Virus record (IMG/VR): IMGVR_UViG_2728369554_000009
Coordinates: 1-40,186 of that record
Origin: a virus
Taxonomy: Duplodnaviria; Heunggongvirae; Uroviricota; Caudoviricetes
Length of the DNA stretch: 40,186 nucleotides
Reading direction: 5' to 3' (one strand)
The position numbers and the translations under genes are program-made. Positions 10,571 through 40,186 of the stretch are shown piece by piece. The notes beneath the pieces are model-generated. The model ran no database searches and was not told the DNA's origin. It saw nothing but the letters and a program-made list of their open reading frames with translations. Numbering within the stretch: position 1 is the stretch's first letter; every line of letters starts with the position of its first letter.

Positions 10571-11167
10571 ATGATGCCTGCTGAACCTAAAACCTATAAA
10601 CGCAAATCAACGCAATTTAAGCCACTAACAGCAATGCAGGAGGCTTATTGCCAGTCATACATCAAAACGCCTGAAAACCAGACTCAGGCAGCGATTAACG
10701 CAGGATTCTCCCCAAATACAGCGGCAGTTAAAGCCAGTGTCATGATGCGCGATGAACGCATTCAAAAACGGATTGCCGAGTTGATGGAGGAGCGCAACAA
10801 ACGAATGCGCGTCAGTGCTGATTACGTTCTCATGCGCCTGGTGGAGATCGACCAGATGGACGTGATCGACATCCTCAACGACGATGGGAGCCTTAAGCCA
10901 ATCCGCGAGTGGCCGAAAATCTGGCGCACTACGCTTAGCGGCTTTGATCTGTCATCGACCATCATGAACATGAACGAGGATTCGATAGAGACAATCCTCA
11001 AAAAAATTAAATGGCCTGACAAGGTGAAGAACCTCGAACTGATTGGTAAGCACGTCGACGTCAAAGCATTCAAAGAACGCCTGGATGTTAATGTGAATGT
11101 GACAATTGCTGATCGCATAGCAGCAGCCAGGAAGCGACTCAAAGAACGTCAGGATGGTAATCAGTGA
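10571..11167 (+). CDS. terS: Terminase small subunit
   Basis: The start was moved to the ATG at 10571 (MMPAEPK). QEAYCQSYIKTPENQTQAAINAGFSPNTAAVKASVMMRDERIQKRI is the Terminase_2-type HTH segment. Confidence 0.75.
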   Translation: MMPAEPKTYKRKSTQFKPLTAMQEAYCQSYIKTPENQTQAAINAGFSPNTAAVKASVMMRDERIQKRIAELMEERNKRMRVSADYVLMRLVEIDQMDVIDILNDDGSLKPIREWPKIWRTTLSGFDLSSTIMNMNEDSIETILKKIKWPDKVKNLELIGKHVDVKAFKERLDVNVNVTIADRIAAARKRLKERQDGNQ

Positions 11168-25833: not shown

Positions 25834-28800
25834 TGCCGTTCTATCCTGTATCTGAATCAAACAATAACGGATTTATTTCTGCTGGTCTCGCCATTCCTGA
25901 ACCTGATGAACAGAGTTTTGATGTGCATCCGCCAGAAGGTAAGAACCCTGAACCTCGTCCCAAAGAGCCTTCATTGCTTGCCGCAGCAATACGACAGAAC
26001 AATATTCTGGCTGGTTTTTTCCGTCCTGCCAGACAGTTTGAACCGGTCGAAGGTTATAACCCATATGCTGATAAAAATGAGTTGCACGGTTATGAATACT
26101 GGGGGGCGAAATTTGCAGATTCCCGATCGCCAGAGGAAACGGCGTGGATTAAGCAGCAGATAGATGATGAAAATGAAGACAGACGTTTATTGTCTGATGC
26201 TGGCGTAGTTGGAACTCTTGCCAGTATTGCTGCAGGAATGGATCCGGTTACCGTTGCGTCAATGTTTATCCCCGGTGCTCAAGGAGGGGCACTGGCGCGT
26301 ATTGGCTCACAGATTGCGATTGGTGCTGCCGGTACAGCATTAAGCGAGGTTGTGCTGAATAATCAGCAAATAACACGCTCATGGGGTGAAAGTGCCGCTC
26401 ACGTTGCAGCGGGTGCGATGATGAGCGGCGTGTTTGCCAGTGCTGGTGTTGCGCTTTCGCCATCCGTCCGGGCTGCAGCCACGCGTGAGGTTGCTGATGC
26501 TCTTGATAATATGAGCATTACATCAGCGACTGACAGGGCTGCCGCTTCGCTTTCTGATGGTGGTAGTGTTGGTGCTATGAAAATTGATACAGCGACTCTG
26601 GATGATTTAACCCCTGTTTCCGGTGGGTGGGTTGGAAAGGCTGCATGGAAAGCAGGGAGCTATCTTACTCCTTTGACAAGGTTAATGGAGTCTCCGTCCA
26701 AGACAGTGCGAAAAACAACGCTGGAGTTAGCCGAAAATAATTTCACCCTTAAAGGAAATGAAAGGGGGATTGAAACACCGGTAGCTGTAGAAACCCGTAC
26801 ACGTGGATGGCAGCGTGAAGAAGCTGCTGTTGTTGTCGGAAATAAACAGGCATACGCAAAGTATAAAGCTGATGGTGGTGACATGAGTTTTGATTCATTT
26901 CGTCAGCAGGTTGGGAATGCTATGCGAAGCGGTGATGTGCATGCTAATCCTGTTGTTCAGGAAACGGCGCAGGCGATGCGAACTGTATTAAATCGGGTGA
27001 AAGTTGAAATGCAAAAGCTTGGTTTATTGCCGCCAGATGAAGAACTGAAAGCATTAGGCCAGGCAAGCTATTTCCCACGCATATATAAAGTTGGAAAAAT
27101 AATCAGTGAACGCGATAAATTTCGACGTATTTTGGTTGACTGGTGGTCGAGAGGAAATAAAACACTGGATCCTGAGGATGCTGAAATTGCAGCGGATATC
27201 GTAATTAATAAAATTACTGGTGCTAAGGTTCCACAGGATTTTGTCAGCGTATTTTCTGTAAAAGCCGCAGGTAGTACGAAAGAAAGAACATTAAATGTTC
27301 CTGATAGTCTTATCGGTGATTATCTTGAAAGTGATGTGAATTACGTGCTGCAACGTCATATCCGTGAAGCGGCAGCAGAAATTGAGTTGATGAGAACATT
27401 TGGCAAACGAACTATGACTGAGCGTCTGCAATTAATTGAGGACGAATATGACAGTCTGTTACGGGAAGTGCCTGAAAAAATAAAGGCGAAATATGACGAA
27501 AGTGTGGCAAATCTGAAAGCACGTTATGAGAGCAATGGTGAAGTTGTTCCTCAGGGTAAACTCGATTCATTAATGCGAAAGTACGAAAAGGAATTACGGA
27601 AAGAACAGTCCAGACTTTCAAAATCAAGAGCAAATGATCTCAGAGACATAACAGCATTACGCGATCGTCTTGTTGGTACATATGGGATGCCTGATGATCC
27701 GTCTTCGTTTTTTGTTCGTGCTGGCGCTTTTCTGCGGGATGTGAACTTCACGACCAAACTCGGTGGAATGACAGTATCAGCTATTCCAGATCTGGCCAGA
27801 GGGGTTATGGTTAATGGTTTCCGTAACACCATGAAAGGCTATGCTTCTCAGATATCCCAATCACCGGCATTTAAGGCCAGCAAAGAAGATATGTTGAAGA
27901 TGGGGATTGGATTGGAAGCTGTACTACATTCACGTTCTCGTGCAATTGGTGATCTTGTTGACAGTTCTTCCAGGACAACAGCAGTCGAAGCAGGAATGGA
28001 GCGAATTACTGATGCCTTCGGCAAGCTGACACTCATGGATCGATTTAATGACATAAACAAATCCATGAACGGAATGCTCACGTCAGACGGTATTTTGTCC
28101 GGTGCGTTTTCTGCACGTCGCATGGCAAAACTCGGTATCAACGACAATATGGCTGCGCGTATTCGCAGTGAGTTCGAGAAACATGGTGAGGTAATTGATG
28201 GATGGCACATTGGTAACTTTGATAAATGGGACGATCAGTACGTTGCCGGAGTATTCCAGTCAGCGGTTCTGAAAGACGTTAATAACACTATCATCACCCC
28301 CGGTATTGGTGACACACCTTTATGGGCGAGTACTCCAATGGGGCGAACGATATTTCAGTTTAAATCATTCACAACGGCTTCATACAACCGTGCGCTACTT
28401 GGTGGGTTACAGGAAGGAACTGCGCAATTTTATTATGGCACTGCATTTCAGATTGCTCTTGGCTCACTGGTCTATGCGCTTAAAGAAGCATCGAAAGGGA
28501 AAAATGTTGACTGGTCACCAGAGAAGCTGGTGCTTGAGGGTATAGATAGATCCGGTATTCTTGGGCCATTGATGGAATATAACAACATGGCTGAAAAGGC
28601 GACTGGTGGTGCTGTTGGGCTGGGGGCTTTATTTGGCACTGGCACACAGTCCAGGTATGCCAGTCGTGGATTCGTAGGATCTCTATTCGGACCGTCATTT
28701 GGTCTTGCGGATAGCATCATTGATGTGACCTCAGGAGTGTTGAATGGTGATGCCGGTGATCGTATTGTGCATAATGTCCGAACCCTGATACCCGGCAATA

Positions 28801-28853
28801 ACCTGTTCTGGATTGCGCCACTAATAAACCAAGTGGATCCGGTGATGCGTTAA
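25833..28853 (+). CDS. Large internal virion or ejection protein
   Basis: 1006 aa. It is the last gene of the ejection block and has glycine-rich hydrophobic segments. Confidence 0.6.
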   Translation: MPFYPVSESNNNGFISAGLAIPEPDEQSFDVHPPEGKNPEPRPKEPSLLAAAIRQNNILAGFFRPARQFEPVEGYNPYADKNELHGYEYWGAKFADSRSPEETAWIKQQIDDENEDRRLLSDAGVVGTLASIAAGMDPVTVASMFIPGAQGGALARIGSQIAIGAAGTALSEVVLNNQQITRSWGESAAHVAAGAMMSGVFASAGVALSPSVRAAATREVADALDNMSITSATDRAAASLSDGGSVGAMKIDTATLDDLTPVSGGWVGKAAWKAGSYLTPLTRLMESPSKTVRKTTLELAENNFTLKGNERGIETPVAVETRTRGWQREEAAVVVGNKQAYAKYKADGGDMSFDSFRQQVGNAMRSGDVHANPVVQETAQAMRTVLNRVKVEMQKLGLLPPDEELKALGQASYFPRIYKVGKIISERDKFRRILVDWWSRGNKTLDPEDAEIAADIVINKITGAKVPQDFVSVFSVKAAGSTKERTLNVPDSLIGDYLESDVNYVLQRHIREAAAEIELMRTFGKRTMTERLQLIEDEYDSLLREVPEKIKAKYDESVANLKARYESNGEVVPQGKLDSLMRKYEKELRKEQSRLSKSRANDLRDITALRDRLVGTYGMPDDPSSFFVRAGAFLRDVNFTTKLGGMTVSAIPDLARGVMVNGFRNTMKGYASQISQSPAFKASKEDMLKMGIGLEAVLHSRSRAIGDLVDSSSRTTAVEAGMERITDAFGKLTLMDRFNDINKSMNGMLTSDGILSGAFSARRMAKLGINDNMAARIRSEFEKHGEVIDGWHIGNFDKWDDQYVAGVFQSAVLKDVNNTIITPGIGDTPLWASTPMGRTIFQFKSFTTASYNRALLGGLQEGTAQFYYGTAFQIALGSLVYALKEASKGKNVDWSPEKLVLEGIDRSGILGPLMEYNNMAEKATGGAVGLGALFGTGTQSRYASRGFVGSLFGPSFGLADSIIDVTSGVLNGDAGDRIVHNVRTLIPGNNLFWIAPLINQVDPVMR

Positions 28854-28874
28854 TCAATATTTATTGGAGTTCTT

Positions 28875-29402
28875 TCAATGGCTGTTTATGGCTTCTAAAG
28901 AAGCTTCTGCACTTATCGGCAAAGCAATAGTATCCTTGTTAGATGTGCTATTGCTTTCCAGAACTATGGAAATCCAATCCTCTTGGTTTTCATTAATTGT
29001 GCTGACAGCCATGATAGCATTCAAATCATTTTTATATATTTCTGATCGAATAAGACCTTTCCTGAATAATTTAGTTAAGTTTTCAGCTATCGACATCGCA
29101 CGAATGCTAACTTTACTAAGCTCAATTGCGTCACTACCTGCGACTTTGGCGTGTTGAGAAAGAGCCATCAAAGCTATATGTGAAAATGTTTCTTCTTTTG
29201 AAAAACCGTTACTTAAAGACATGAGTGATACACCAGCTCCGTATGGGGTGAGTTTATATCCTGATACATTCAGTGCATGCTCTACAAAGGTAAGATCATC
29301 AGTTGTAGAAACATGCATATCGTTACTTTTTTGTTTTTTTGCAATAAATAAAAAAACAAAATTAATAATCACGATGCCGACGATGATTAAGAAAACTTCC
29401 AT
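28875..29402 (-). CDS. Membrane-anchored orphan protein (175 aa): N-terminal transmembrane helix plus a ~145-aa soluble domain
   Basis: MEVFLIIVGIVIINFVFLFIAKKQK signal-anchor. GAGGA Shine-Dalgarno. It has its own operator-bearing promoter. The DNA is visibly AT-rich compared with its flanks. Confidence 0.6.
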   Translation of the reverse strand: MEVFLIIVGIVIINFVFLFIAKKQKSNDMHVSTTDDLTFVEHALNVSGYKLTPYGAGVSLMSLSNGFSKEETFSHIALMALSQHAKVAGSDAIELSKVSIRAMSIAENLTKLFRKGLIRSEIYKNDLNAIMAVSTINENQEDWISIVLESNSTSNKDTIALPISAEASLEAINSH

Positions 29403-29422
29403 TGCTTTTCCTCACAATAACA

Positions 29423-29437
29423 TTACCTTAAAGGTAA
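29423..29437. promoter_or_regulatory. Perfect operator 21 bp upstream of the membrane-protein ATG
   Basis: ttaccttaaaggtaa. Confidence 0.55.
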
Positions 29438-29462
29438 TATTTTGTGCTAATGTGATCAAGTG

Positions 29463-29861
29463 TTAAGTGTATACCTCCTGCTGTTCAGTCGTGATTTTAC
29501 CCGGCAACACCTTTTTAGCTTTGCGCGGGTTAACCACATGGCCTTTAGTCCAGTACTCGTAGAGCACATCATCACACTCTTCCTGATACTGGATTACCTT
29601 ATCGCGGATTTCAGGGCGGACTTTGTTTGGACTGATGCTGTTCAACCAAGCTGCCAATTTTCGTAAAGCCATACAAATCATGGCTTGCACCCCTCCGGCA
29701 GAAGGTATGGTGATTTCCACCATACCCTTCGAGAAGCGTTGAGAAATCTTCTTATGTTGAGATTTCCAGTCTAGACCCATTCCCTCAACGATAGGTTTCA
29801 TTGGGGTGTACGGTTCGCCGTTGTGATTGACAACATAAAGTTCTACGCCGTGGAATGGCAC
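29463..29861 (-). CDS. P22 Ant N-terminal-domain-like protein (132 aa, GTG start)
   Basis: PFHGVELYVVNHNGEPYTPMKPIVEGMGLDWKSQHKKI matches the P22_AR N-terminal pattern as I recall it. The long Ant C-terminal part is missing. Confidence 0.6.
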   Translation of the reverse strand: MPFHGVELYVVNHNGEPYTPMKPIVEGMGLDWKSQHKKISQRFSKGMVEITIPSAGGVQAMICMALRKLAAWLNSISPNKVRPEIRDKVIQYQEECDDVLYEYWTKGHVVNPRKAKKVLPGKITTEQQEVYT

Positions 29862-30008
29862 GTTGATAGTAGTGACAAGTTTGAAACATCGCTGGTTGTA
29901 AGCCAGCAGATGCTCGTTATTTTACATCGCGGTACAATTTCTCGCTGGTGGCTCTTTTATACACCTTAACCAAATATGGTTGATTTTGATATTTATCTTC
30001 GTCTATTA

Positions 30009-30265
30009 TTACCTTTTCGGTAAATTTACATCGCACTCCTCTTGTGCCATAGTAATCGGGCACTGGCAAAATCCAGTGCCGGGATTGGTCTCCCGGATTA
30101 CTACAGAGGCACATATGCCGCATAAGCGGTTTTTTTATGTGTAAAGCGCACCTATTCTATGGTGGGCTGTGTGGGGGCACCGAAAGGTGCGCCGGGTTCC
30201 TTTGTAGCCGGTAAGACCAACTCTGCACAGTTCACCACCATCTGATTGGTCTCAGCGGTGGTGAT
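30009..30265 (+). repeat. Outer inverted repeat, arm A (operator plus structured leader)
   Basis: It is the reverse complement of 32938-33197. The first 95 nt are identical. After that there is patchy identity with paired substitutions. Confidence 0.85.
30024..30136 (+). ncRNA. Terminated leader sRNA, copy A, possibly C4-like
   Basis: An outer stem tagtaatc/gattacta (30050-30057 / 30096-30103) encloses hairpins ggcactgg-caaaat-ccagtgcc and ggga-ttggtc-tccc. Hairpin ccgc-ataa-gcgg plus T7 follows. The loop ttggtct is complementary to agaccaa in the downstream leader. Confidence 0.5.
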
Positions 30266-30290
30266 TAACCTAACTACAAAGGTGATCGCC

Positions 30291-30983
30291 ATGAATACCA
30301 AACCTTCCATCTTTTCCTTTGAGTCATCCTGCCAGATCCGTATGTTCATGATTGACGGAGAACCTTGGTTTGTCACCAAAGATGTGTGCAATGCTTTGAA
30401 TATTGATGTTACACAAGCGAGAAAACTTGATAAAAAAGGCTGGAACAAAAAGGGGCTGTATTCAATACAGACCCCTGGTGGAATACAAGAACTATCCATC
30501 GTTTCAGAATCAGGTCTCTACATCCTTATTCTGCGTTGCAAAGAGGCAATGACTGAGGGAACGAGAGCATTCAGATTTCTTGAATGGGTTACAGGTGAGG
30601 TTCTTCCTCAGATCCGCCGCACCGGAAGTTACATTAAAAACTCGCTCCCGCAGGAAGAACGCATAAAGATGGTTGCCGACCAGGTAGCCAACGCCACGGC
30701 GTCAGCAGTAATGCAGGCGATGAAGATAGAGAACAAAACCTACAGTGCCCCGCTGAAGCCCGGCTACCGCAGCCTGATTCATTCTCCGTCTGGTGTTCTC
30801 GGCCTGACGGAGAACTCACTGCTGATGAATCTGCTGAACCAGTTACAGGAAGACGGGCACGATGTATCGGGCGCGGCGGCGGAGCTGACCACCATGTTCT
30901 GCTACATCGTCGGTGTGAGCAAATGCCTGCGTGATATCCAGACGCACGCGGAATACATCAACGACAAGGCAGGGTTCTTCTGA
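30291..30983 (+). CDS. Antirepressor 1: Bro-N domain plus the shared C-terminal module
   Basis: The start MNTKPSIFSFE lies behind AGGTGA. QIRMFMIDGEPWFVTKDVCNALNI is Bro-N-like. The last ~81 aa are nearly identical to those of the 32255-32911 product. Confidence 0.75.
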   Translation: MNTKPSIFSFESSCQIRMFMIDGEPWFVTKDVCNALNIDVTQARKLDKKGWNKKGLYSIQTPGGIQELSIVSESGLYILILRCKEAMTEGTRAFRFLEWVTGEVLPQIRRTGSYIKNSLPQEERIKMVADQVANATASAVMQAMKIENKTYSAPLKPGYRSLIHSPSGVLGLTENSLLMNLLNQLQEDGHDVSGAAAELTTMFCYIVGVSKCLRDIQTHAEYINDKAGFF

Positions 30984-31008
30984 CAGAACGGCGGCACAGG
31001 GACGTGCA
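30741..31008 (+). repeat. Inner inverted repeat, arm A (antirepressor C-terminal module plus about 25 nt of 3-prime UTR)
   Basis: About 8 mismatches over about 245 coding nt against the reverse complement of 32230-32497, from manual alignment. Confidence 0.85.
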
Positions 31009-31021
31009 AAACGAAACTAGC

Positions 31022-31033
31022 GTGACATGTCAC
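31022..31033. repeat. 12-bp palindrome GTGACATGTCAC, copy 3
   Basis: Exact sequence directly abutting the terminator at 31034-31058. Confidence 0.8.
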
Positions 31034-31058
31034 AGGCCGCTTTCGCGGCCTTGTTTTT
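31034..31058 (+). terminator. Intrinsic terminator after antirepressor 1
   Basis: Hairpin aggccgc-tttc-gcggcct followed by tgttttt. Confidence 0.75.
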
Positions 31059-31218
31059 AACGAATGCCACCGCCACCCGGGCGGGAATCCGCAGAACGCC
31101 CACCGCAGCGGGAGCCGTCAGCAGCAGTGTCGCTGTCGTGCTGACAACGACCGGCAAAGGCCTGAGTTGAAGCTACCAGAGACAACAAAACGAACAGTGC
31201 AGCAAATGCTTTTTTCAT
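31057..31218 (-). CDS. Small secreted peptide (53 aa) with an Excalibur-like D-x-D...DG-x-x-C segment
   Basis: The signal peptide MKKAFAALFVLLSLVASTQAFA is followed by GRCQHDSDTAADGSRCGG. A candidate promoter of its own has TTGACG, a 16-17-nt spacer and TATAGA. It is GC-rich, unlike its neighbours. Confidence 0.45.
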   Translation of the reverse strand: MKKAFAALFVLLSLVASTQAFAGRCQHDSDTAADGSRCGGRSADSRPGGGGIR

Positions 31219-31299
31219 TGTGAAATTTCCATCTATAAACCACCTCAATGTGGCGTCAATGAGTGTAGCACTGACTTTTGTTTCGTCCATAAAAAACTA

Positions 31300-31812
31300 C
31301 TATGCAGGCTTTTTGGATTTGTACGAATAATCCCACGGATAAACATTTCTACTAAGTGGAGCTGTATTCGTTCGTTCATGAAATAATTTTGTGAAATTCA
31401 ATACGGAATCCATCCAAACTTTTGCGTTAGCTTTGGTGTGTGCGGGCGGGTCCCAATAAGCTAGTAAGGCTGCATCTCTTATTTCATTGACTGCATATAT
31501 GAGATATGCGTTACTGGTTGGTTTTGGCCTGTAATTTCCTTGTTCATCAATCAATCCATATGACCACTCATCCCAACACTGTTCAGTACATGAGTATGAA
31601 TATGATGCATATTCACCAATATTGACATGAACCTTTCTGAGATGGAAGCCTAATACTTCCTCTGGTCTTTCAAAAAGAGTATCTTTTCCCAGATCAGGAT
31701 GATGACCATGACGCCAGTGTTGTTTAAAAGCATCTTTTAGCGAAATCAGAAAGTCATCAGTTTTAAACTCACCAGTAGGTATAACCTTCCCGCTATACTC
31801 ACTCAAAAACAT
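31300..31812 (-). CDS. YafO-like toxin-family protein (170 aa)
   Basis: LKDAFKQHWRHGHHPDLGKDTLFERPEEVLGFHLRKVHVNIGE and NAYLIYAVNEIRDAALLAYWDPPAH parallel YafO segments (..PDIFGRDALYDD..VAHIHLAN.. and ..AHLVYCQG..AWLLIAIL.PEPH), which I am recalling from memory. AT-rich DNA. Confidence 0.5.
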   Translation of the reverse strand: MFLSEYSGKVIPTGEFKTDDFLISLKDAFKQHWRHGHHPDLGKDTLFERPEEVLGFHLRKVHVNIGEYASYSYSCTEQCWDEWSYGLIDEQGNYRPKPTSNAYLIYAVNEIRDAALLAYWDPPAHTKANAKVWMDSVLNFTKLFHERTNTAPLSRNVYPWDYSYKSKKPA

Positions 31813-32125
31813 CGAATTCCTCTTCCTTCATATGCGTTTCTAATGAGTTAAGCTGGCGGAAAGATATCTCTTTTGATTCTGCAGATGAGAGCTTTTTTAT
31901 CCGCTTTATATTCTTTGTGATAGGAATAGACATTGTATGCACATCAGCGGATGCTCTTGGCTTTGTGCTGATAAAAATATGGCGCAATGCCGCATTTTCA
32001 CTATTGAACGAGCCAATAGCTGATTTACGTGCTACAACCTTACCAGTAAAAATACGACTCTTGCTACGCTTTGCATGAGTTCCGCTTCTTACCGGACCTC
32101 TCATCACGAATCCAAGTTTTGTCAT
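31799..32125 (-). CDS. Upstream partner of the YafO-like gene (108 aa, basic N-terminus, acidic tail EEEFDVFE). Putative antitoxin of an unrecognised family.
   Basis: It overlaps the downstream gene by 14 nt. A promoter with a perfect operator lies 43 bp upstream. Confidence 0.5.
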   Translation of the reverse strand: MTKLGFVMRGPVRSGTHAKRSKSRIFTGKVVARKSAIGSFNSENAALRHIFISTKPRASADVHTMSIPITKNIKRIKKLSSAESKEISFRQLNSLETHMKEEEFDVFE

Positions 32126-32167
32126 CTTTAATCTCCGGTAAGTTACAGGTATAAAATAAAAACAGGT

Positions 32168-32182
32168 TTACCTTTAAGGTAA
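32168..32182. promoter_or_regulatory. Perfect operator upstream of the two-gene operon
   Basis: ttacctttaaggtaa. Confidence 0.55.
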
Positions 32183-32229
32183 TAGTACGCTATTCACCCC
32201 CGGTCTGCAATCTGTACAGAATTATTTAA

Positions 32230-32497
32230 AGGCACATCCCTGTGCCACCGCCCGTCAGAAGAACCCTGCCTTGTCGTTGATGTACTCCGCGTGGGTCTGG
32301 ATATCACGCAGGCATTTGCTCACACCGACGATGTAGCAGAACATGGTGGTCAGCTCCGCCGCCGCGCCCGATACGTCGTGCCCGTCGTCCTGTAACTGGT
32401 TCAGCAGATTCATCAGCAGTGAGTTCTCCGTCAGGCCGAGAACACCAGACGGCGAATGAATCAGGCTGCGGTAGCCGGGCTTCAGTGGGGCGCTGTA
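32230..32497 (-). repeat. Inner inverted repeat, arm B
   Basis: Reverse complement of 30741-31008. Confidence 0.85.
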
Positions 32498-32911
32498 TTC
32501 TTTTTTGTCTTCCAGCTTGATCGCCTCCATTATGGCGGGCATGAAGCCTGACAAGACCTTCTCCACTTTTGTTTCTTGTTGTCTTAAACGTTTCTCGCAT
32601 TCAATGAAGTAGCGTCGCACCTGGCGACCTTTTTCGTTACGCTCGACCATCGCCAGCTCTTTGGCTGTATCAAGGGTGAGGTGGTACTCTTTGCGGTTGT
32701 GGCCGCCTCTACCAGATGTTTGCTTTCCCAAATTGGAAAGCAAAATATAGTCTTGATTTTCAATGAATTCGTATTCTGATATGCGATTTGTAATCCATGC
32801 TGCAAACACCTTTTTAACACCTAAAAAAGCGTGCAGATCGCGGGCATTACAAAGTAGGGCTGTTTCGTTAGATATAGTGCCGTTGAATACGGGGATGAGT
32901 TGAGCGTTCAT
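32255..32911 (-). CDS. Antirepressor 2: AntA-type N-terminal domain plus the shared C-terminal module
   Basis: [37 protein letters not shown]...[29 protein letters not shown] is the AntA/AntB pattern. Confidence 0.75.
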
Positions 32912-33069
32912 GATGGCGTCTCCACTTAGCGAATTACATCACCACCGCTGAGACCAATCAGATGGTGGTGAACTGAACGGAGTTGGTCTTACCGGCCTAA
33001 GTGGTACCGGCGTCCTTTCGGACCCCCATTCAGCCCACCATAATTCTGGCATGACTGTGCTATACGCAT

Positions 33070-33182
33070 AAAAAAACCACGTCTGGCGTGGTATGCGCCA
33101 CTTAGTAATCCGGGAGACCAATCCCGGCACTGGATTTTGCCAGTGCCCGATTACTATGGCACAAGAGGAGTGCGATGTAAAT
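33070..33182 (-). ncRNA. Terminated leader sRNA, copy B
   Basis: Its body (33103-33156) is identical to copy A. The terminator stem differs (ccacg-ccaga-cgtgg plus T7), so the structure is kept while the sequence changed. Confidence 0.5.
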
Positions 33183-33197
33183 TTACCGAAAAGGTAA
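33183..33197. promoter_or_regulatory. Perfect operator at the head of leader B. Its mirror at the head of leader A is 30009-30023.
   Basis: ttaccgaaaaggtaa. Confidence 0.55.
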
Positions 33198-33228
33198 ATA
33201 TAAGCACTCCACTTGGTAATTGCAAACC

Positions 33229-33486
33229 TTATCTGGTTTGTTTTCGTAATTGTTCGGCACAATAGTCGAGATGTGTTTGCAGATCCTGCATAGACATCTG
33301 TGAGCTGGTGACGTAGTTAATCAGTGCAGTCAGTTCGGCAAGTGGGCCATCGACATTAAATCCATCCTTATCGAGATCCCGGAGTAATTTCATCAAGTGC
33401 GATCCCTCCACCAGTGACCTGACGCCTCCCGGCGTGTGAATCCTTTCGGTAAATCCGTCTTCCAGTGGATAGTGATACTGCTGCAT
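33229..33486 (-). CDS. Mini-antirepressor (85 aa) made only of a diverged copy of the shared C-terminal module
   Basis: The start MQQYHYPLEDG lies behind GGAGAAG. HTPGGVRSLVEGSHLMKLLRDLDKDGFNVDGPLAELTALINYV aligns with [44 protein letters not shown]. The longer 126-aa ORF would include the LexA box. Confidence 0.6.
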   Translation of the reverse strand: MQQYHYPLEDGFTERIHTPGGVRSLVEGSHLMKLLRDLDKDGFNVDGPLAELTALINYVTSSQMSMQDLQTHLDYCAEQLRKQTR

Positions 33487-33507
33487 CTTATCTTCTCCAT
33501 GCAATAA

Positions 33508-33523
33508 CTGTATATTTATACAG
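33508..33523. promoter_or_regulatory. LexA (SOS) box CTGTATATTTATACAG
   Basis: A perfect CTGT-N8-ACAG with an AT-only spacer, 22 bp upstream of the mini-antirepressor ATG. Confidence 0.8.
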
Positions 33524-33562
33524 TAGCAAATAATTTGTTTGCTATCCAGCACGTTTTGCAAA

Positions 33563-33577
33563 TTACCTGAAAGGTAA
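33563..33577. promoter_or_regulatory. Perfect operator in the divergent region between the mini-antirepressor and the tailspike gene
   Basis: ttacctgaaaggtaa, with the same spacer as the site at 13804. Confidence 0.55.
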
Positions 33578-33681
33578 TATCTATTCGTATTTACAGCCTT
33601 TCTATCCATATGTGGTTTTCCAGGTAATAGAATAACCAGATATGCGGCGCAACGGGTGCTGCGACTATCTGGAGATTTAAC

Positions 33682-36600
33682 ATGACGGTCTCAACCGAAG
33701 TTGACCACAACGAATACACCGGTAACGGCGTTACGACATCGTTTCCGTATACTTTTCGAATTTTCAGAAAATCAGACCTGGTTGTTCAGGTGTCTGACCT
33801 GAACGGAAACGTAACAGAATTGGTTCTGGATACCGGTTATACGGTAACTGGGGCGGGCACTTATAGTGGCGGTTCTGTGGTTCTTCCGTCTCCGCTTGCT
33901 ACTGGATGGCGAATTACGATAGATCGTGTGCTTGATGTAGTGCAGGAGACAGACCTTCGCAATCAGGGAAAATTTTTCCCCGAAGTGCATGAAGATGCCT
34001 TTGACTACCTGACGATGCTGATCCAGCAATGTTTTGGGTGGTTCAGACGTGCATTGATGAAACCATCTTTGCTTGCAAAATATTACGATGCAAAGCAAAA
34101 CAAAATTTCTAACCTTGCAGATCCATCATTTGAGCAGGACGCTGTAAATAATCGCTCAATGCGTAATTATGTCGATGCTGCAATCGCCGGGGTTGTTGGT
34201 GGTTTTGGTTGGTTTATTCAGTATGGTTCTGGGGCTGTGTACCGAACGTTCCAGGATAAAATGCGTGATGCTATTAGCCCCAAAGATTTTGGAGCTGTTG
34301 GTGATGGTATAAATGACGATTCCACTGCAATAAGCGCGTGCCTTGAAGCCTCATCTCCAGGTTATAAAATTGACGGATTAGGGCTTACTTTTAAAGTATC
34401 AACTCTTCCGGATGTCAGTCGATTTAAAAATGCTCGTTTTTTATTTGAGAGAATACCGGGCCAGCCTCTTTTTTATGCTTCTGAAGATTTTATCCAGGGA
34501 GAGTTATTTAAAATTACAGATACACCGTGGTACAACGCCTGGACGCAGGATAAAACGTTTGTATATGACAATGTCATCTATGCGCCTTTTATGGCTGGAG
34601 ACCGCCATGGTGTAAATAACCTCCATGTTGCATGGGTTCGCTCAGGAGATGACGGGAAGACCTGGACAACGCCGGAATGGCTTACAGATTTACATGAAAA
34701 CTATCCCACAGTTAACTATCACTGCATGAGTATGGGGGTTGTCAGAAATCGCCTTTTTGCTGTAATTGAGACGCGGACCGTGAGCGGAAATAAACTGCAG
34801 GTTGCAGAGTTGTGGGATCGCCCAATGAGTCGCAGCCTTCGCGTTTATGGTGGTATAACGAAAGCAGCAAATCAGCAAGTCGCTTATATTCGCATTACTG
34901 ATCACGGATTATTTGCTGGTGATTTTGTCAACTTCTCAAACTCTGGTGTTACAGGTGTTACCGGGAATATGACGGTGACTACTGTTATTGATAAAAATAC
35001 TTTTACAGTTACGACGCAAAATACCCAGGATGTGGATCAGAATAACGAGGGTAGATACTGGAGTTTTGGTACATCATTTCACTCGTCACCATGGAGAAAA
35101 ACCAGTCTTGGAACTATTCCTTCTTTTGTTGACGGAAGCACTCCTGTTACTGAGATTCACAGTTTTGCGACGATTAGCGATAACAGTTTTGCTGTTGGCT
35201 ACCATAATGGTGATATTGGTCCACGCGAGCTTGGGATACTCTATTTCTCTGATGCTTTCGGTTCTCCTGGTAGCTTTATTCGCAGACGCATACCTGCAGA
35301 ATATGAGGCGAATGCATCTGAGCCATGTGTAAAATATTATGATGGCATTCTGTATCTGACGACCAGGGGGACATTAAGTACTCAACCCGGTAGTTCATTG
35401 CACAGAAGCTCTGATTTAGGTACATCATGGAATTCTCTTCGCTTCCCAAATAATGTTCATCACTCAAACCTTCCTTTTGCCAAAGTTGGCGATGAGCTGA
35501 TTATTTTTGGCAGTGAGCGCGCATTTGGTGAGTGGGAAGGAGGAGAACCTGATAACCGTTATGCAGGAAATTATCCAAGAACATTTATGACCAGAGTTAA
35601 CGTCAATGAGTGGAGTCTGGATAATGTAGAGTGGGTTAATGTTACTGATCAGATTTATCAGGGCGGAATAGTTAACTCTGCGGTTGGTGTTGGTTCAGTT
35701 TGTATCAAAGACAACTGGCTGTACTACATTTTCGGTGGGGAAGACTTTCTAAACCCATGGAGCATAGGGGATAACAACAGAAAATATCCTTATGTTCACG
35801 ATGGTCACCCGGCTGATTTATATTGTTTCAGGGTGAAAATCAAACAGGAAGAATTTGTTTCAAGGGATTTTGTCTACGGAGCCACTCCTAACAGAACGCT
35901 TCCTACTTTTATGTCGACGTCAGGCGTGAGGACGGTTCCTGTACCCGTTGATTTCACAGATGATGTTGCCGTCCAGTCACTGACTGTCCATGCAGGTACA
36001 TCAGGACAAGTTCGCGCGGAAGTCAAACTTGAGGGTAATTACGCCATTATTGCGAAGAAAGTACCGTCTGATGATGTTACCGCTCAGAGATTAATCGTTA
36101 GCGGCGGTGAAACAACGTCTTCAGCAGATGGTGCAATGATAACGTTGCATGGTTCCGGAAGCAGTACTCCACGTCGCGCGGTATATAACGCACTCGAACA
36201 TCTTTTTGAGAACGGAGATGTTAAACCTTATCTTGATAATGTAAATGCTCTTGGTGGTCCGGGAAACAGGTTCTCGACAGTTTATCTTGGCTCCAATCCT
36301 GTGGTTACCAGTGACGGAACATTAAAGACAGAGCCGGTCTCTCCTGACGAAGCATTGCTGGATGCCTGGGGTGACGTCAGGTATATCGCTTATAAATGGC
36401 TGAACGCTGTCGCTATAAAGGGGGAAGAAGGGGCGAGGATACATCATGGTGTAATCGCGCAGCAACTTCGTGATGTTCTTATTTCTCACGGACTCATGGA
36501 AGAAGAAAGCACAACATGCCGCTATGCCTTTCTTTGCTATGACGATTATCCCGCAGTATATGATGACGTCATTACTGGCCAAAGGGAAATGCCGCTGACT

Positions 36601-36801
36601 GATAATGAAGGGAGCATCATTGTTGATGAGGATGATAATCCAGTGATGGTAATGGAAGACATCATTGAGCGCGTTGAAATAACGCCAGCAGGATCTAGAT
36701 GGGGGGTCAGACCTGATCTCTTATTCTATATCGAGGCAGCATGGCAGCGCAGAGAAATGGATAAGATAAAAGAGCGGATTCAGTCTCTGGAAGAACGTTA
36801 A
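33682..36801 (+). CDS. Tailspike: conserved N-terminal particle-binding domain, Asp-box (sialidase-like) central domain, and a C-terminal intramolecular chaperone (peptidase S74-type) domain
   Basis: 1039 aa. Asp-boxes are SGDDGKTW and SSDLGTSW. The GAVGDGINDDSTAI motif is present. The C-terminal VVTSDGTLKTE...HHGVIAQQL matches the S-D-x-x-x-K autocleavage region, with Ser877 at 36310-36312. Confidence 0.85.
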   Translation: MTVSTEVDHNEYTGNGVTTSFPYTFRIFRKSDLVVQVSDLNGNVTELVLDTGYTVTGAGTYSGGSVVLPSPLATGWRITIDRVLDVVQETDLRNQGKFFPEVHEDAFDYLTMLIQQCFGWFRRALMKPSLLAKYYDAKQNKISNLADPSFEQDAVNNRSMRNYVDAAIAGVVGGFGWFIQYGSGAVYRTFQDKMRDAISPKDFGAVGDGINDDSTAISACLEASSPGYKIDGLGLTFKVSTLPDVSRFKNARFLFERIPGQPLFYASEDFIQGELFKITDTPWYNAWTQDKTFVYDNVIYAPFMAGDRHGVNNLHVAWVRSGDDGKTWTTPEWLTDLHENYPTVNYHCMSMGVVRNRLFAVIETRTVSGNKLQVAELWDRPMSRSLRVYGGITKAANQQVAYIRITDHGLFAGDFVNFSNSGVTGVTGNMTVTTVIDKNTFTVTTQNTQDVDQNNEGRYWSFGTSFHSSPWRKTSLGTIPSFVDGSTPVTEIHSFATISDNSFAVGYHNGDIGPRELGILYFSDAFGSPGSFIRRRIPAEYEANASEPCVKYYDGILYLTTRGTLSTQPGSSLHRSSDLGTSWNSLRFPNNVHHSNLPFAKVGDELIIFGSERAFGEWEGGEPDNRYAGNYPRTFMTRVNVNEWSLDNVEWVNVTDQIYQGGIVNSAVGVGSVCIKDNWLYYIFGGEDFLNPWSIGDNNRKYPYVHDGHPADLYCFRVKIKQEEFVSRDFVYGATPNRTLPTFMSTSGVRTVPVPVDFTDDVAVQSLTVHAGTSGQVRAEVKLEGNYAIIAKKVPSDDVTAQRLIVSGGETTSSADGAMITLHGSGSSTPRRAVYNALEHLFENGDVKPYLDNVNALGGPGNRFSTVYLGSNPVVTSDGTLKTEPVSPDEALLDAWGDVRYIAYKWLNAVAIKGEEGARIHHGVIAQQLRDVLISHGLMEEESTTCRYAFLCYDDYPAVYDDVITGQREMPLTDNEGSIIVDEDDNPVMVMEDIIERVEITPAGSRWGVRPDLLFYIEAAWQRREMDKIKERIQSLEER

Positions 36802-36807
36802 AAAAAA

Positions 36808-36827
36808 GCCCGCAATATTTTGCGGGT
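36808..36827 (-). terminator. Hairpin after the tailspike gene whose T-run is on the minus strand
   Basis: gcccgcaa-tatt-ttgcgggt is preceded by A7-8 on the plus strand and followed by atcaaaaa. It is therefore a canonical terminator only for leftward transcription. Confidence 0.5.
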
Positions 36828-37107
36828 ATCAAAAACGGAGTTTGTGAAAAGTTATCTTTGAATTCTATCATGAATCAGTACGTATTTTAAATACATGTTC
36901 AGGTTTATTACACCATAGCATTATTAAATACAAAATTAAGTCTATGGTTCCTGTACAACTGCCCCCACTCTGCTGGCTCGTTCTGTAAAATCATTAGTAC
37001 TTTTATTGAGATATATGATATGGAACAATAATGATTTATATATGGTTTACTATGCGGGTTTAGTCATCAATAATTGACTGGCTTATAGATAGTAAACAGG
37101 AGAAAGT

Positions 37108-37512
37108 ATGTCTGCTCAAGTAACAAGTGAGCAATTAAATCAGTTGCTTAGTTTTAGTTCTCTTGCTGCGGTTATTGCAGGTGCCCCTCCGGAGGTTGCT
37201 TTAGGGGCTTTGGCTGGGGCGGTAATTTTTGTTACCTCTGCAGTAGAGTACCCCATCCGTCGCCGGGTGCTCCTGTCGATGCTCAGCTTTCTTTGCGGCC
37301 TTCTCTTTTACAAACCAGCAGCATCAATTCTTATCGGCATAGCCAGCCTGATCCCTACCATCACGCAGGACTCTTTTGAAAAAGGGATTGTTTTCTCTGC
37401 AGGCGCATTCGTGTCAGCAATTGTCGCTGTGCGTATTGGTATATGGCTCTATCACCGTTCCGATAATCCACGCGAGTTAATTCTGGGGAGAAAAGACGAT
37501 GGTAACGCATGA
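37108..37512 (+). CDS. Holin-like multi-pass membrane protein (134 aa)
   Basis: It has three or four hydrophobic segments and is the first gene of the lysis cassette. AGGAGAAAG Shine-Dalgarno. Confidence 0.55.
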   Translation: MSAQVTSEQLNQLLSFSSLAAVIAGAPPEVALGALAGAVIFVTSAVEYPIRRRVLLSMLSFLCGLLFYKPAASILIGIASLIPTITQDSFEKGIVFSAGAFVSAIVAVRIGIWLYHRSDNPRELILGRKDDGNA

Positions 37513-37807
37513 GTTTTTTTTGCTTATCACCAATGCAGTTATTTGCACTGGCATAGCAATTCGCGTTGTCACATTCCGGCGTAACGGCTCTCAACATCGA
37601 AGGTGGGGAGGATGGCTTGCTTATTTCCTGATTGTTGCTGCGGCCAGTATTCCTGTTCGAGTCGCCTATGCAATCTGGTTACGTACGCCAATGGCTGTGG
37701 ATTTATCTGAGGTCATTATCAACGCTGTCATGCTGGCTGCGGTTATTAAAACGCGCGGTAACGTCGTTCAAATTTTTAAAGTATCGAGGTCTAAACATGG
37801 AGATTAA
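37499..37807 (+). CDS. Holin or antiholin-like membrane protein (102 aa)
   Basis: It has three hydrophobic segments and overlaps both neighbouring genes. Confidence 0.6.
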
Positions 37808-38426
37808 ACAATTCCAGCGAGCTGCTGGTATCAGCGAGGCACTGGCCGCACGCTGGTTCTCGCATATAACTTCTGCGATGAAAGAGTTTGGTATCAGCAA
37901 AGCAGAAGATCAGGCAATGTTTATTGCTCAAGTCGGGCATGAGTCTGGGGGCTTCACCAGGTTGCAGGAGAATTTCAACTACAGTGTCAGCGGACTGGCT
38001 AACTTCGTTCGGGCTGGGCGTCTCACTCAGGGGCAGGCTAATGCACTGGGGCGCCGTGCTGGTGAACCACCATTGCCACTTGAGCGCCAGCGCGTGATCG
38101 CAAATCTGGTATACAGCAAACGCATGGGGAACAATGCCCCTGGTGATGGCTGGAATTACCGAGGGCGCGGACTTATCCAGATTACCGGTTTGAATAACTA
38201 TCGTGATTGCGGAAACGGTCTGAAGGTTGACCTGCTGGAGAGCCCTGAACTGCTGGCGCAGGACGAATATGCGGCTCGTAGCGCGGCGTGGTTCTTCGCC
38301 AGCAAAGGATGCATGAAGTATACCGGCGATATTGCACGTGTAACTCTGATTATCAATGGTGGCCGGAACGGCATCGACGACCGGCGAGCGCGGTACATCA
38401 CTGCCAGTAAGGTGCTGGCGGTATGA
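37797..38426 (+). CDS. Endolysin, glycoside hydrolase family 19 (chitinase-like)
   Basis: The start was moved to [33 protein letters not shown] and [12 protein letters not shown] are GH19 lysozyme signatures. Confidence 0.85.
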
Positions 38427-38920
38427 TCTGGGCATTCGTAAAAGCATACTGGAAACAGTTGCTTATCGTGGCAGTGCTTGCTGTTCTGGTCATATCAGGA
38501 GTGGTTGCCTGGAATATACACGGCAGTCGCCAGTACGATGCCGGGTATGCTCAGGCGAAGGAAGATCAGAAACAGGCTGATGATAAGTTAAGGTCACAGC
38601 GTGAACAGGAGAAAACACAAATTGAACGTGAAGCACAATCCCGTATCGATGCGGCGCGTGCTGATGCTGAGTATGCTAATTCCGCTGCTGACAGCATGCG
38701 CGCCGAGCTTGACAAAACCAGGCGGCTCGCCGAACACTATACCGGATCTTTCCTCCCTGGCACGCCAGCCAGCAAGGTCATCGGTGTGCTCGCCGACATG
38801 CTTGAAGAAAGCAACCGAGTTTACAACGCAACAGCAGCTGAGGCTGAAAAGTATCGTATCGCAGGGGAATTCTGCGAGCAGCAATACGATTCACTGAAGA
38901 AGCAAAAATCGTGGCACTGA
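38423..38920 (+). CDS. Rz: i-spanin (Rz-like)
   Basis: An N-terminal transmembrane helix is followed by a charged coiled-coil. ATGA overlap with the endolysin gene. Confidence 0.75.
38649..38897 (+). CDS. Rz1: o-spanin (Rz1-like) nested in the +1 frame
   Basis: [17 protein letters not shown] lipobox, followed by a proline-rich mature region. It lies fully inside the Rz-like gene. Confidence 0.7.
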   Translation: MRRVLMLSMLIPLLTACAPSLTKPGGSPNTIPDLSSLARQPARSSVCSPTCLKKATEFTTQQQLRLKSIVSQGNSASSNTIH

Positions 38921-39010
38921 TTTCCGGTGACGGTATATAAAACGGTACGGGAAAAGTTGAGGTTTGTAAAAGTGTTATCACTCAATTGGTTATGGTTGTC
39001 GTAAATAATA

Positions 39011-39025
39011 GAGTGGGAATGATTT
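39011..39025 (+). other. attR-side remnant of the guaA 3-prime end (ata gag tgg gaa tga = IEWE*)
   Basis: GMP synthase ends ..TIEWE, from memory. Here only these codons remain, preceded by in-frame stops and followed by a host-type terminator. Confidence 0.5.
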
Positions 39026-39046
39026 GACCCTGCACTATGAATGAAC

Positions 39047-39077
39047 AAAACCCTCTGTTACTACAGAGGGTTTTTTT
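39047..39077. terminator. Bidirectional intrinsic terminator (host guaA/yfgI convergent terminator)
   Basis: aaaa-ccctctg-ttacta-cagaggg-ttttttt. Confidence 0.8.
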
Positions 39078-39115
39078 ATCCTAAAGAATTATAGGTTTGA
39101 AGTTACTAACATCGT

Positions 39116-39655
39116 TTAGTTAAACCAGCTATCTGATTTATTCTCTTCTGCTTTACCCACGCTTTTCATCAGATCGCGACCGCCTTCAGTCATATTTCTG
39201 TTTGCGTCAGCTTCAGATTGCACCACATCGGTTTGCGCAGCTTTGTGCTTCAGTTCCTGATCGATAAATTCGTTTTCGCGCTTGACGCGGGCTTCTTCTT
39301 TCGCCAGCGCCAGTTTTTGTTTCTGAATCTCTAAGCTACGTAGCTCATCTTCATAACTTTGATCGCGTTTTTTGTCCGCAGTGGCTTCGGCGTCCAGTTT
39401 ATCCTGACGAGCTTTCTTATTCGCTGCTGCCGTTGCCGCTCTTTTATTAGCCGCGGCCTGGGCGTTTGCGCGACGTTGCTTCTCTTGCTGGATTTCCCTG
39501 TTGCGCTCCGCGACCCATTCGTCATGCTGCCTTTGCTCTTCATTTTTACCTTGCTGTTCCGCTTCTGCGACAGCCGAGAGTTGATCCTGCAATGATGAGG
39601 CGATAGCCGGATAGCTTAAGGAGGCTAAGATGGCGCAAAGAAAAACTTTCTTCAT
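39116..39655 (-). CDS. yfgI: Secreted Q/K/A/E-rich coiled-coil protein, YfgI-like host gene
   Basis: 179 aa with the signal peptide MKKVFLCAILASLSYPAIA. The sequence and its pairing with the upstream lipoprotein gene match my recollection of E. coli yfgH-yfgI. Confidence 0.6.
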   Translation of the reverse strand: MKKVFLCAILASLSYPAIASSLQDQLSAVAEAEQQGKNEEQRQHDEWVAERNREIQQEKQRRANAQAAANKRAATAAANKKARQDKLDAEATADKKRDQSYEDELRSLEIQKQKLALAKEEARVKRENEFIDQELKHKAAQTDVVQSEADANRNMTEGGRDLMKSVGKAEENKSDSWFN

Positions 39656-39670
39656 GACTCCTCCTGATTA

Positions 39671-40186
39671 TTAGCTCTTTTCAGGACATTTGGTATTTGG
39701 CTGAATACGCGTTTCGTTATACGTCGTGGTAATAACAACGGCTAAACCTGTCGTAAACTGGCACTCTTTACCCACCTGGGTGGAGGTATACACTTTGGTG
39801 CCTTCCTTATATGTTAAAGAAACACCTTCCACTAAGGTTTTATCATTCACCATAGAACCCGCTGCCGCGCCTACAGCTCCGCCGCCAACTGCACCTGCCG
39901 TCGTTCCGGAATTGCTGCCAGACCCGACGTTGTGGCCGATAACACCGCCAGCGACAGCGCCAATAAGCGCGCCGAAGGCTTGTGCGTTCCGTTTATTTTG
40001 GGCGTTGTCTACGGCAACTTTTGCGGGAAGAATGGAAATAATATTAACGGTTTTAGTTTCTTGTTTGGTATTCAGTTGATCGGTTTGATAAACATCGGCG
40101 GCATGATCATCAGCATTTGACTGGCATCCTGCCAGAGTGAATGACGCTAACATTGCCACAGGCAGAAGACATTTTTTAAATTTCAT
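39671..40186 (-). CDS. yfgH: Glycine-zipper outer-membrane lipoprotein, YfgH-like host gene
   Basis: 171 aa with an LAGC lipobox and the glycine zipper GALIGAVAGGVIGHNVGSG..GAVGGGAVGAAAG. Confidence 0.6.
   Translation of the reverse strand: MKFKKCLLPVAMLASFTLAGCQSNADDHAADVYQTDQLNTKQETKTVNIISILPAKVAVDNAQNKRNAQAFGALIGAVAGGVIGHNVGSGSNSGTTAGAVGGGAVGAAAGSMVNDKTLVEGVSLTYKEGTKVYTSTQVGKECQFTTGLAVVITTTYNETRIQPNTKCPEKS

Follow-up and report, generated by a model that had tools for sequence, protein, structure and literature searches.

Tailspike gene and its location in the prophage

The sequence analyzed here (hereafter, the window) is the whole 40,186-nt stretch of the IMG/VR virus record IMGVR_UViG_2728369554_000009, and the analysis was focused on the tailspike gene located in its 3' part. 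The window contains a prophage that starts at the integrase start codon and continues with recombination, replication, terminase, portal, capsid, and internal-core genes followed by the tailspike gene; the host DNA in the window is limited to yfgI and yfgH. The open reading frame (ORF) of the tailspike is uninterrupted over 3120 nt, and a GGAG sequence is located 9 nt 5' of its ATG codon. Re-reading of the sequence bore out the ORF coordinates, the motifs, and the Ser877 residue given in a preliminary description of this DNA. The N-terminal adaptor of the protein resembles those of E15, SPN1S, and O157 typing phage 10 (see below), and the placement of its gene is as in the Uetakevirus phage vB_EcoP_ZX5 (ZX5); the tailspike was assigned to the Uetakevirus type on this basis. 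The features of the tailspike gene and its surroundings are listed in Table 1.

Table 1. Tailspike domains, mosaic blocks, and neighbouring elements in the window (nt positions; aa, amino acids)
Feature	Positions	Strand	Remarks
Tailspike gene	33682..36801	+	ATG start, 1039 aa and stop; endosialidase with ε15-type N-terminal adaptor and C-terminal, predicted self-cleaving chaperone
Conserved, putative virion-attachment (adaptor) domain, aa 1-165	33682..34176	+	tblastn, PHROG, and Dpo31 D1 matches; ε15-like/Uetakevirus and related podophages
Linker/neck, aa 166-204	34177..34293	+	leads into the DFGAxGDGxxDD motif; conserved only with the closest Uetakevirus-type tailspikes
Endosialidase N-terminal extension, End_N_terminal PF12218, aa 205-271	34294..34494	+	Pfam E 5.9e-32
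Six-bladed catalytic β-propeller, End_beta_propel PF12217, aa 272-721	34495..35844	+	Pfam E 2.9e-233, full profile length
Asp-box 1, SGDDGKTW, aa 321-328	34642..34665	+	aligns with the K1F endoNF residue 362 box
β-barrel inserted in the propeller, End_beta_barrel PF12195, aa 383-465	34828..35076	+	Pfam E 3.2e-46
Asp-box 2, SSDLGTSW, aa 576-583	35407..35430	+	aligns with the K1F endoNF residue 610 box
Stalk (tailspike / triple β-helix), End_tail_spike PF12219, aa 722-876	35845..36309	+	Pfam E 8.4e-78
Intramolecular chaperone / Peptidase_S74, aa 877-1039 (163 aa)	36310..36798	+	Pfam and 3gw6 matches, Ser877-Lys882 dyad
Uetakevirus-scaffold block: upstream ORF, intergenic region, codons 1-194	33229..34263	+	98.2% nucleotide identity to EC.W1-9
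Junction, 116 nt, aa 195-233	34264..34379	+	about 55-60% identical to either parent; encodes KDFGAVGDGINDD
CUS-3 siaK1 block, aa 233-1030, catalytic body and chaperone	34380..36772	+	99.4% nucleotide identity over 2393 nt
GC-rich hairpin CCCGCAATATTTTGCGGG	36809..36826	.	directly 3' of the tailspike stop, A8 run upstream; terminator-like scoring on the minus strand
Lysis cassette: two holins, GH19 endolysin, DUF2514 spanin-like protein	37108..38920	+	late-operon position as in ε15-like phages
attR core ATAGAGTGGGAATGATT	39008..39024	+	differs at one position from the att core published for ZX5; prophage end before yfgI

Domain organization of the tailspike

As for the central part of the protein (aa 205-876), all of its Pfam domains, together with the C-terminal one (five calls in the protein), were above the gathering scores. 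Comparison of this part with solved structures showed similarity with the endosialidase endoNF of the phage K1F (1v0e/3gvl, E = 0, 1048 bits) and with the phi92 endosialidase (4hiz, E 2e-271). Over 665 residues, 65.6% were identical to K1F endoNF, with values for individual domains between 56% (stalk) and 78%; since this identity is to a crystal structure, the question of the fold was settled without modeling. The residues of K1F endoNF described in the literature as catalytic or substrate-binding, namely, H350, R549, E581, R596, and R647, correspond in the alignment to H309, R515, E547, R562, and R613 of the tailspike, and all five are identical. The strict Asp-box pattern S.D.G..W was observed twice, versus 0.0095 occurrences expected for a protein of such length and composition. 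In the stalk, Arg803 and Ser814 of the tailspike are kept relative to Arg837 and Ser848 of K1F; Met819 (nt 36136-36138) aligns with K1F Gln853, and Met is also present at this position in the phage CUS-3. As judged from the sequence, the central body of the tailspike is an endosialidase (GH58). This assignment goes further than the preliminary description, in which a sialidase-type centre with two Asp-boxes was proposed: both boxes are present and aligned with those of K1F endoNF, and Pfam, the identity with K1F, and the identity with CUS-3 siaK1 (see below) all indicate a true endosialidase.

The chaperone domain is located at the extreme C-terminus, directly after the triple β-helix stalk. 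The Peptidase_S74 family (PF13884) matched aa 877-937 with an E-value of 1.7e-10, starting at profile position 1, and aa 757-1038 showed similarity with the structure of the K1F stalk plus chaperone (3gw6, E 5.6e-94). Autocleavage of the K1F protein involves the Ser911/Lys916 dyad and an upstream helper arginine, R897 (PMC8326128). Ser877, Lys882, and R863 of the tailspike align exactly with Ser911, Lys916, and R897, in agreement with the S74-type chaperone with cleavage at Ser877 that had been proposed from the sequence. In addition, Thr876 aligns with K1F Thr910, at which the mature K1F enzyme ends in the crystal chains. Autocleavage is thus predicted to occur between Thr876 and Ser877, and the mature protein would end at Thr876. 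S74 chaperone domains are also present on unrelated tail proteins (structure matches 9vvr, 7y5s, 3gud, and 6eu4).

According to the tblastn analysis, aa 1-165 are 64-72% identical to the tailspikes of Salmonella phages E15 and SPN1S and of E. coli O157 typing phage 10, and the same region is 30-47% identical to proteins of Pseudomonas, Pelagibacter, Xanthomonas, and Bordetella podophages. The whole N-terminal part (aa 1-204) has 97.5% amino acid identity with that of the phage EC.W1-9. In 25 different PHROG tail families, which vary in length from 538 to 1284 positions, the first 160-170 positions are matched by aa 1 to ~165 of the tailspike, and the PHROG family phrog_1171 covers the whole architecture of the tailspike. 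Such a combination of one N-terminal domain with many different bodies is characteristic of virion-attachment adaptors. A single relative of the adaptor has a solved structure, namely, domain D1 of Dpo31, a tailspike from a marine podovirus (28lx, 8ck1; E 1.5e-32); the depolymerase activity of Dpo31 is not lost when D1 is removed (Dpo31 paper). The position of the domain, its modular distribution, and its likeness to Dpo31 suggest that it attaches the protein to the tail, and they support the conserved N-terminal attachment domain proposed in the preliminary description. The 'T7-like tail fibrin' label given to the N-terminus in the ZX5 paper had no such match in Pfam.

Related phages and distribution of the tailspike gene

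The same protein has been published for ZX5, a temperate phage of the genus Uetakevirus whose ORF7 was described as comprising an N-terminal tail domain, a central endosialidase, and an intramolecular chaperone (ZX5 paper, 2022). ORF7 has the same length of 1039 aa and 99.8% nucleotide identity with the tailspike gene of the window; the proteins are distinguished by three differences (S368R, I533V, and E976D). According to the same paper, an O87:H52:K1 strain serves as the host on which ZX5 forms plaques, the 3' end of guaA is its integration site, and it is induced spontaneously at 10^7 PFU/mL (plaque-forming units). The downstream lysis cassette and the guaA integration site are the same in ZX5 and in the window prophage, whereas the moron/antirepressor region upstream is different, and ZX5 is an isolated phage, while the window copy is integrated.

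SiaK1 of CUS-3 (a P22-like prophage of E. coli K1 RS218, CP000711) and the window tailspike hardly differ in the propeller, barrel, stalk, and chaperone. The part of the GenBank record devoted to siaK1 marks endo-alpha-sialidase activity as established by direct assay and cites Stummeyer et al. 2006. CUS-3 has a P22-type head-binding N-terminus and another set of the last 10 residues, while the N-terminus of the window tailspike is of the ε15 type. The phase-variable O-acetyltransferase gene neuO is located downstream of siaK1 in CUS-3 and is absent from the window prophage: neither a neuO-type O-acetyltransferase gene nor a heptanucleotide repeat was found in the window by blastn, tblastx, and regular-expression searches. 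The two phages also differ in location, since the CUS-3-type copy adjoins intS and a tRNA-Arg gene, whereas the window prophage is located at guaA.

K1F endoNF has the same domain order as the window tailspike from aa 205 to the end, but its N-terminus is of the T7 gp17 type, and K1F is a lytic phage. Relative to K1F, the window tailspike contains a 7-aa insertion, FVDGSTP (aa 482-488), and the cleavage site is S-D-G-T-L-K rather than S-N-G-E-R-K. The tailspikes of the ε15, phiV10, and SPN1S type and the 'eliminase' of EC.W1-9 are encoded at the same place in the genome, with the ant/moron region on one side and the lysis genes on the other; however, their bodies are β-helix depolymerases of O-antigen or other polysaccharides, and the similarity stops at about aa 227. 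The modular acquisition of endosialidases by the T7-like K1F, the P22-like CUS-3, and the SP6-like K1E/K1-5 scaffolds has been reviewed. The window tailspike is the ε15-like version of this modular endosialidase, which is already known and already represented by ZX5.

In the survey of 5426 complete E. coli genomes, the full-length tailspike gene was found in 72. In RefSeq, the product is named 'endosialidase catalytic beta-propeller domain-containing protein', and the copy in the BCE049 genome (WP_061336246.1) has 100% nucleotide identity with that of the window. The tailspike is ordinary in the sense that the same protein has been published for ZX5 and annotated in dozens of genomes of K1 E. 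coli.

Mosaic structure of the tailspike gene

Nucleotide comparison with EC.W1-9 and CUS-3 divides the tailspike gene into a Uetakevirus-scaffold block, a short junction, and a CUS-3 siaK1 block (Table 1). On either side of the latter block, identity to CUS-3 drops to 20-60%. Within it, the tailspike differs from CUS-3 by six amino acids (A266V, I533V, G826R, T866I, A891T, and E976D), none of which is catalytic. The motif KDFGAVGDGINDD in the junction is common to all three proteins (those of the window, EC.W1-9, and CUS-3), and this DFGAxGDGxxDD motif is a plausible crossover point. The second breakpoint is located 29 nt before the stop codon; the last 10 residues of the tailspike and the AT-rich spacer downstream were found only in this phage lineage.

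Since the CUS-3 block is unbroken across the sialidase body, the stalk, and the chaperone, these were inherited as one piece, and the nucleotide comparison indicates that the recent mosaic consists of an adaptor plus an enzyme with its chaperone, not of three independent modules. The preliminary description of a mosaic tailspike thus holds for the adaptor/enzyme junction but not for a separate swapping of the sialidase and the chaperone. Its argument from composition, that an AT-rich centre indicates domain swapping, proved weak: the GC content of the third codon position is lower in aa 205-876 (35.7%) than in the ends (43.7%, z = 2.4), but the difference in overall GC content (43.9% vs. 46.2%, z = 1.2) is not significant. 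The mosaic itself is real, and the breakpoints of nucleotide identity demonstrate it much better than the composition.

K1 capsule and bacterial host

Capsule genes are absent from the window. In BCE049, whose genome is the closest to the window of those compared, a K1 capsule cluster (kpsMT-neuDBACES-kpsSCUDEF) is located next to pheV. It contains kpsM/T-type ABC transporter genes, an acetyltransferase gene, neuB, a cytidylyltransferase gene, neuC, genes encoding a glycosyltransferase and an α2,8-polysialyltransferase, and six region-1-type export genes. The neuC gene of this cluster (positions 34158-35356 of the BCE049 segment analyzed) is annotated as frameshifted. If the frameshift is real and not an assembly error, the BCE049 lysogen would have no capsule and would be immune to the K1-specific type of phage that it carries.

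The polysialyltransferase gene neuS was found in 329 of the 5426 genomes. The carriers of the tailspike gene include APEC O1, CE10 (O7:K1), IAI39, and strains named O1:K1:H7 and O2:K1:H7. Because neuS is present only in this fraction of genomes, the association of the prophage with strains named or verified as K1 is meaningful, although few carriers were sampled, with some bias in their choice. The K1 host of ZX5, the kps/neu cluster of BCE049, and the K1-named carriers indirectly support the previously proposed K1 polysialic-acid capsule as the probable target of the prophage tailspike.

Proposed function and alternative explanations

The observed domains, residue conservation, breakpoints, phage identity, and genomic context indicate that the tailspike is, very probably, the receptor-destroying K1 endosialidase of a temperate podophage of the ε15-like (Uetakevirus) type, the integration site of which is the 3' end of guaA. 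Close homologues provide the model for its trimerization, autocleavage, polysialic-acid hydrolysis, and attachment. In this model, the chaperone domain (aa 877-1039) would nucleate folding of the stalk, and three chains would form a trimer; the Ser877/Lys882 dyad would cut between Thr876 and Ser877, and the chaperone domain would thereby remove itself. The mature trimer would be held on the tail via aa 1 to about 165, while the six-bladed β-propeller would bind and cut α2,8-linked polysialic acid, so that the phage could tunnel through the K1 capsule to the outer membrane. Hydrolysis of α2,8-polysialic acid by the tailspike is suggested by its identity with CUS-3 siaK1 and by the growth of ZX5 on a K1 host. 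The gene itself would be of recombinant origin, with a Uetakevirus adaptor joined at DFGAxGDGxxDD to an endosialidase-plus-chaperone block like that of the unrelated P22-like CUS-3.

Several points weigh against this explanation. K1F Gln853, which is replaced by Met819 in the tailspike, is a polysialic-acid-binding residue of the stalk, together with Arg837 and Ser848. The N-terminal 204 aa had no Pfam family at E < 0.01. The ZX5 paper described the domains of ORF7 by annotation only, and the capsule locus was read in proxies (BCE049, the ZX5 host, and the named carriers) rather than in the source strain.

Many E. coli prophages are defective, and BCE049 carries pseudogenized antirepressor genes by its tailspike gene after a 2.8-kb deletion, so that the tailspike might be a dead relic in a defective prophage, with an ORF intact by chance and no longer expressed or assembled into virions. 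However, the 3120-nt ORF is unbroken with all the catalytic and cleavage residues intact, the gene set of the window is full from the integrase to the lysis cassette and the attR core, and a 99.8%-identical gene works in the viable phage ZX5; moreover, eight copies of the shared 2393 nt contain 18 variable sites and no disruptions. A relic is accordingly considered very improbable. Slightly less probable still is another specificity, either for the K92 alternating α2,8/α2,9 polymer or for O-acetylated polysialic acid only, or binding without cleavage. The six differences from CUS-3 and the Met at the K1F Gln853 equivalent could be taken to point in this direction, but none of these six falls on a catalytic residue, and at positions 266, 866, and 891 the tailspike shares the residue of K1F, with CUS-3 of RS218 being derived. 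In addition, ZX5 grows on a K1 host, and the carriers checked were K1.

As for the origin of the protein, three independently swapped modules (adaptor, sialidase, and chaperone), visible by GC content, would fit the lower third-position GC of the centre and the occurrence of S74 chaperones on unrelated tail proteins. This is nevertheless unlikely: the 99.4% identity with CUS-3 continues unbroken through the sialidase, stalk, and chaperone, the same contiguous arrangement is present in K1F, overall GC does not differ significantly, and recent breakpoints are visible only at the adaptor/enzyme junction and 29 nt before the stop codon.

The K1 endosialidase assignment carries little weight as a discovery, as the protein, its three-part architecture, and its link to K1 are already present in the literature (ZX5, CUS-3, and K1F) and in RefSeq. 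At the same time, the presence of the tailspike makes it almost certain that the host is an extraintestinal E. coli of the K1 type, and the gene is a further clean example of host-range change, in which a ready-made depolymerase and chaperone are joined to an adaptor specific to the phage lineage, the junction being a conserved motif.

Endosialidase module in two prophage lineages

EC69, APEC O18, and N21 are among the K1 genomes that carry both Uetakevirus-type and CUS-3-type endosialidase genes. In EC69 and APEC O18, guaA is the site of the Uetakevirus-type gene; the CUS-3-type gene adjoins intS and tRNA-Arg and is followed by an acyltransferase gene. The eight copies of the shared 2393 nt mentioned above originate from prophages of both types. 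In the 2.3-kb core (34462-36758), no differences were found between the Uetakevirus-type copy of EC69 and the CUS-3-type copy of APEC O18, the flanks of which are unalignable; the two copies within APEC O18 have one difference in this core. Both breakpoints of the exchanged module are located inside the ORF.

Five further differences of the RS218 CUS-3 copy are likely to be derived: at the three sites that can be polarized (266, 866, and 891), K1F has the residues of the Uetakevirus type. Five alleles of the Uetakevirus type in the CUS-3-type copy of APEC O18 were considered as a sign of ongoing gene conversion and rejected as proof of it, as plain ancestry explains the pattern.

The near-identity of the copies implies that the endosialidase block moved very recently between the two phage lineages. 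A very recent, possibly continuing, homologous exchange of this module between Lederbergvirus and Uetakevirus prophages co-resident in K1 extraintestinal pathogenic and avian pathogenic E. coli (ExPEC/APEC) is suggested here tentatively, as a possibility to which we give somewhat less than even credence. If true, one endosialidase allele would be kept on two virion scaffolds. That endosialidases are exchanged as modules is textbook knowledge (review), and no paper describing exchange between Lederbergvirus and Uetakevirus was found in the literature searched. The near-identical module on two unrelated scaffolds in the same strains could be of interest for work on tailspike exchange or on K1-targeting phages and enzymes.

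Genomic environment of the tailspike gene

The spacer between the tailspike gene and the first holin gene (36802-37107, 306 bp) is AT-rich (GC about 0.32) and contains no ORF of at least 60 aa. Among phage records, it matched only ZX5 and two Phi05 fragments (distant BLAST). Two small ORFs are located at the position of this spacer in EC.W1-9, and neuO is located at the equivalent position in CUS-3. The hairpin at the beginning of the spacer is a possible 3' end of the tailspike transcript. The tRNA scan of the window revealed no tRNA genes.

Between guaA and yfgI, the window prophage is 99.9-100% identical to the BCE049 prophage, with the exception of window positions 30776-33593, which are missing from BCE049 as a clean 2.8-kb deletion, located at 11096-11101 of the BCE049 segment that was compared. 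The BRO-N and antirepressor genes that remain near the tailspike gene in BCE049 are annotated as pseudogenes in RefSeq. When positions 28000-40186 of the window were compared with complete E. coli genomes, no record covered at least 80% of them. The BCE049 assembly places the thr operon on the minus strand at 4.19 Mb, but guaBA (3.66 Mb) is oriented as in K-12, which implies that a large part of the chromosome is inverted with respect to K-12 or that the assembly contains an artefact.

Across genomes, no other part of the prophage varies as much as the ant/moron region (30776-33593). Antirepressor cassettes were identified at 30004-30984 (+) and 32254-33202 (-); the two are convergent and partly duplicated. 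In each, an isrK RNA (RF01394) and a C4 antisense RNA (RF01695) precede the ORF of an antirepressor, which is of the BRO-N type in one case (30246..30983, +) and of the AntA type in the other (32255..32911, -), with the last ~85 aa common to both. The cassettes are linked by inverted repeats of 257 nt (95%), 100 nt (98%), and 59 nt. This organization resembles a P1/P7-style immI module present twice in inverted orientation, and the segment between the copies could invert.

Three moron-like ORFs are located between the cassettes (31057-32125, -). The 77-aa product has a signal-peptide-like N-terminus and belongs to phrog_14503 ('membrane associated protein'), and the 108-aa product belongs to phrog_5933. 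The 170-aa product (phrog_1651) showed a sub-threshold match to YafO_toxin (E 7e-4, 20.1 bits vs. a cutoff of 25); genes annotated as YafO family toxins are also present near the tailspike genes of EC69 and APEC O18. A second segment shared with CUS-3 is located outside this region: the ORF 29463..29861 (-) encodes a protein of 132 aa, and positions 29476-29872 have 95.7% nucleotide identity with the 5' part of the CUS-3 ant gene; the BCE049 counterpart of this ORF is annotated in RefSeq as a truncated antirepressor pseudogene.

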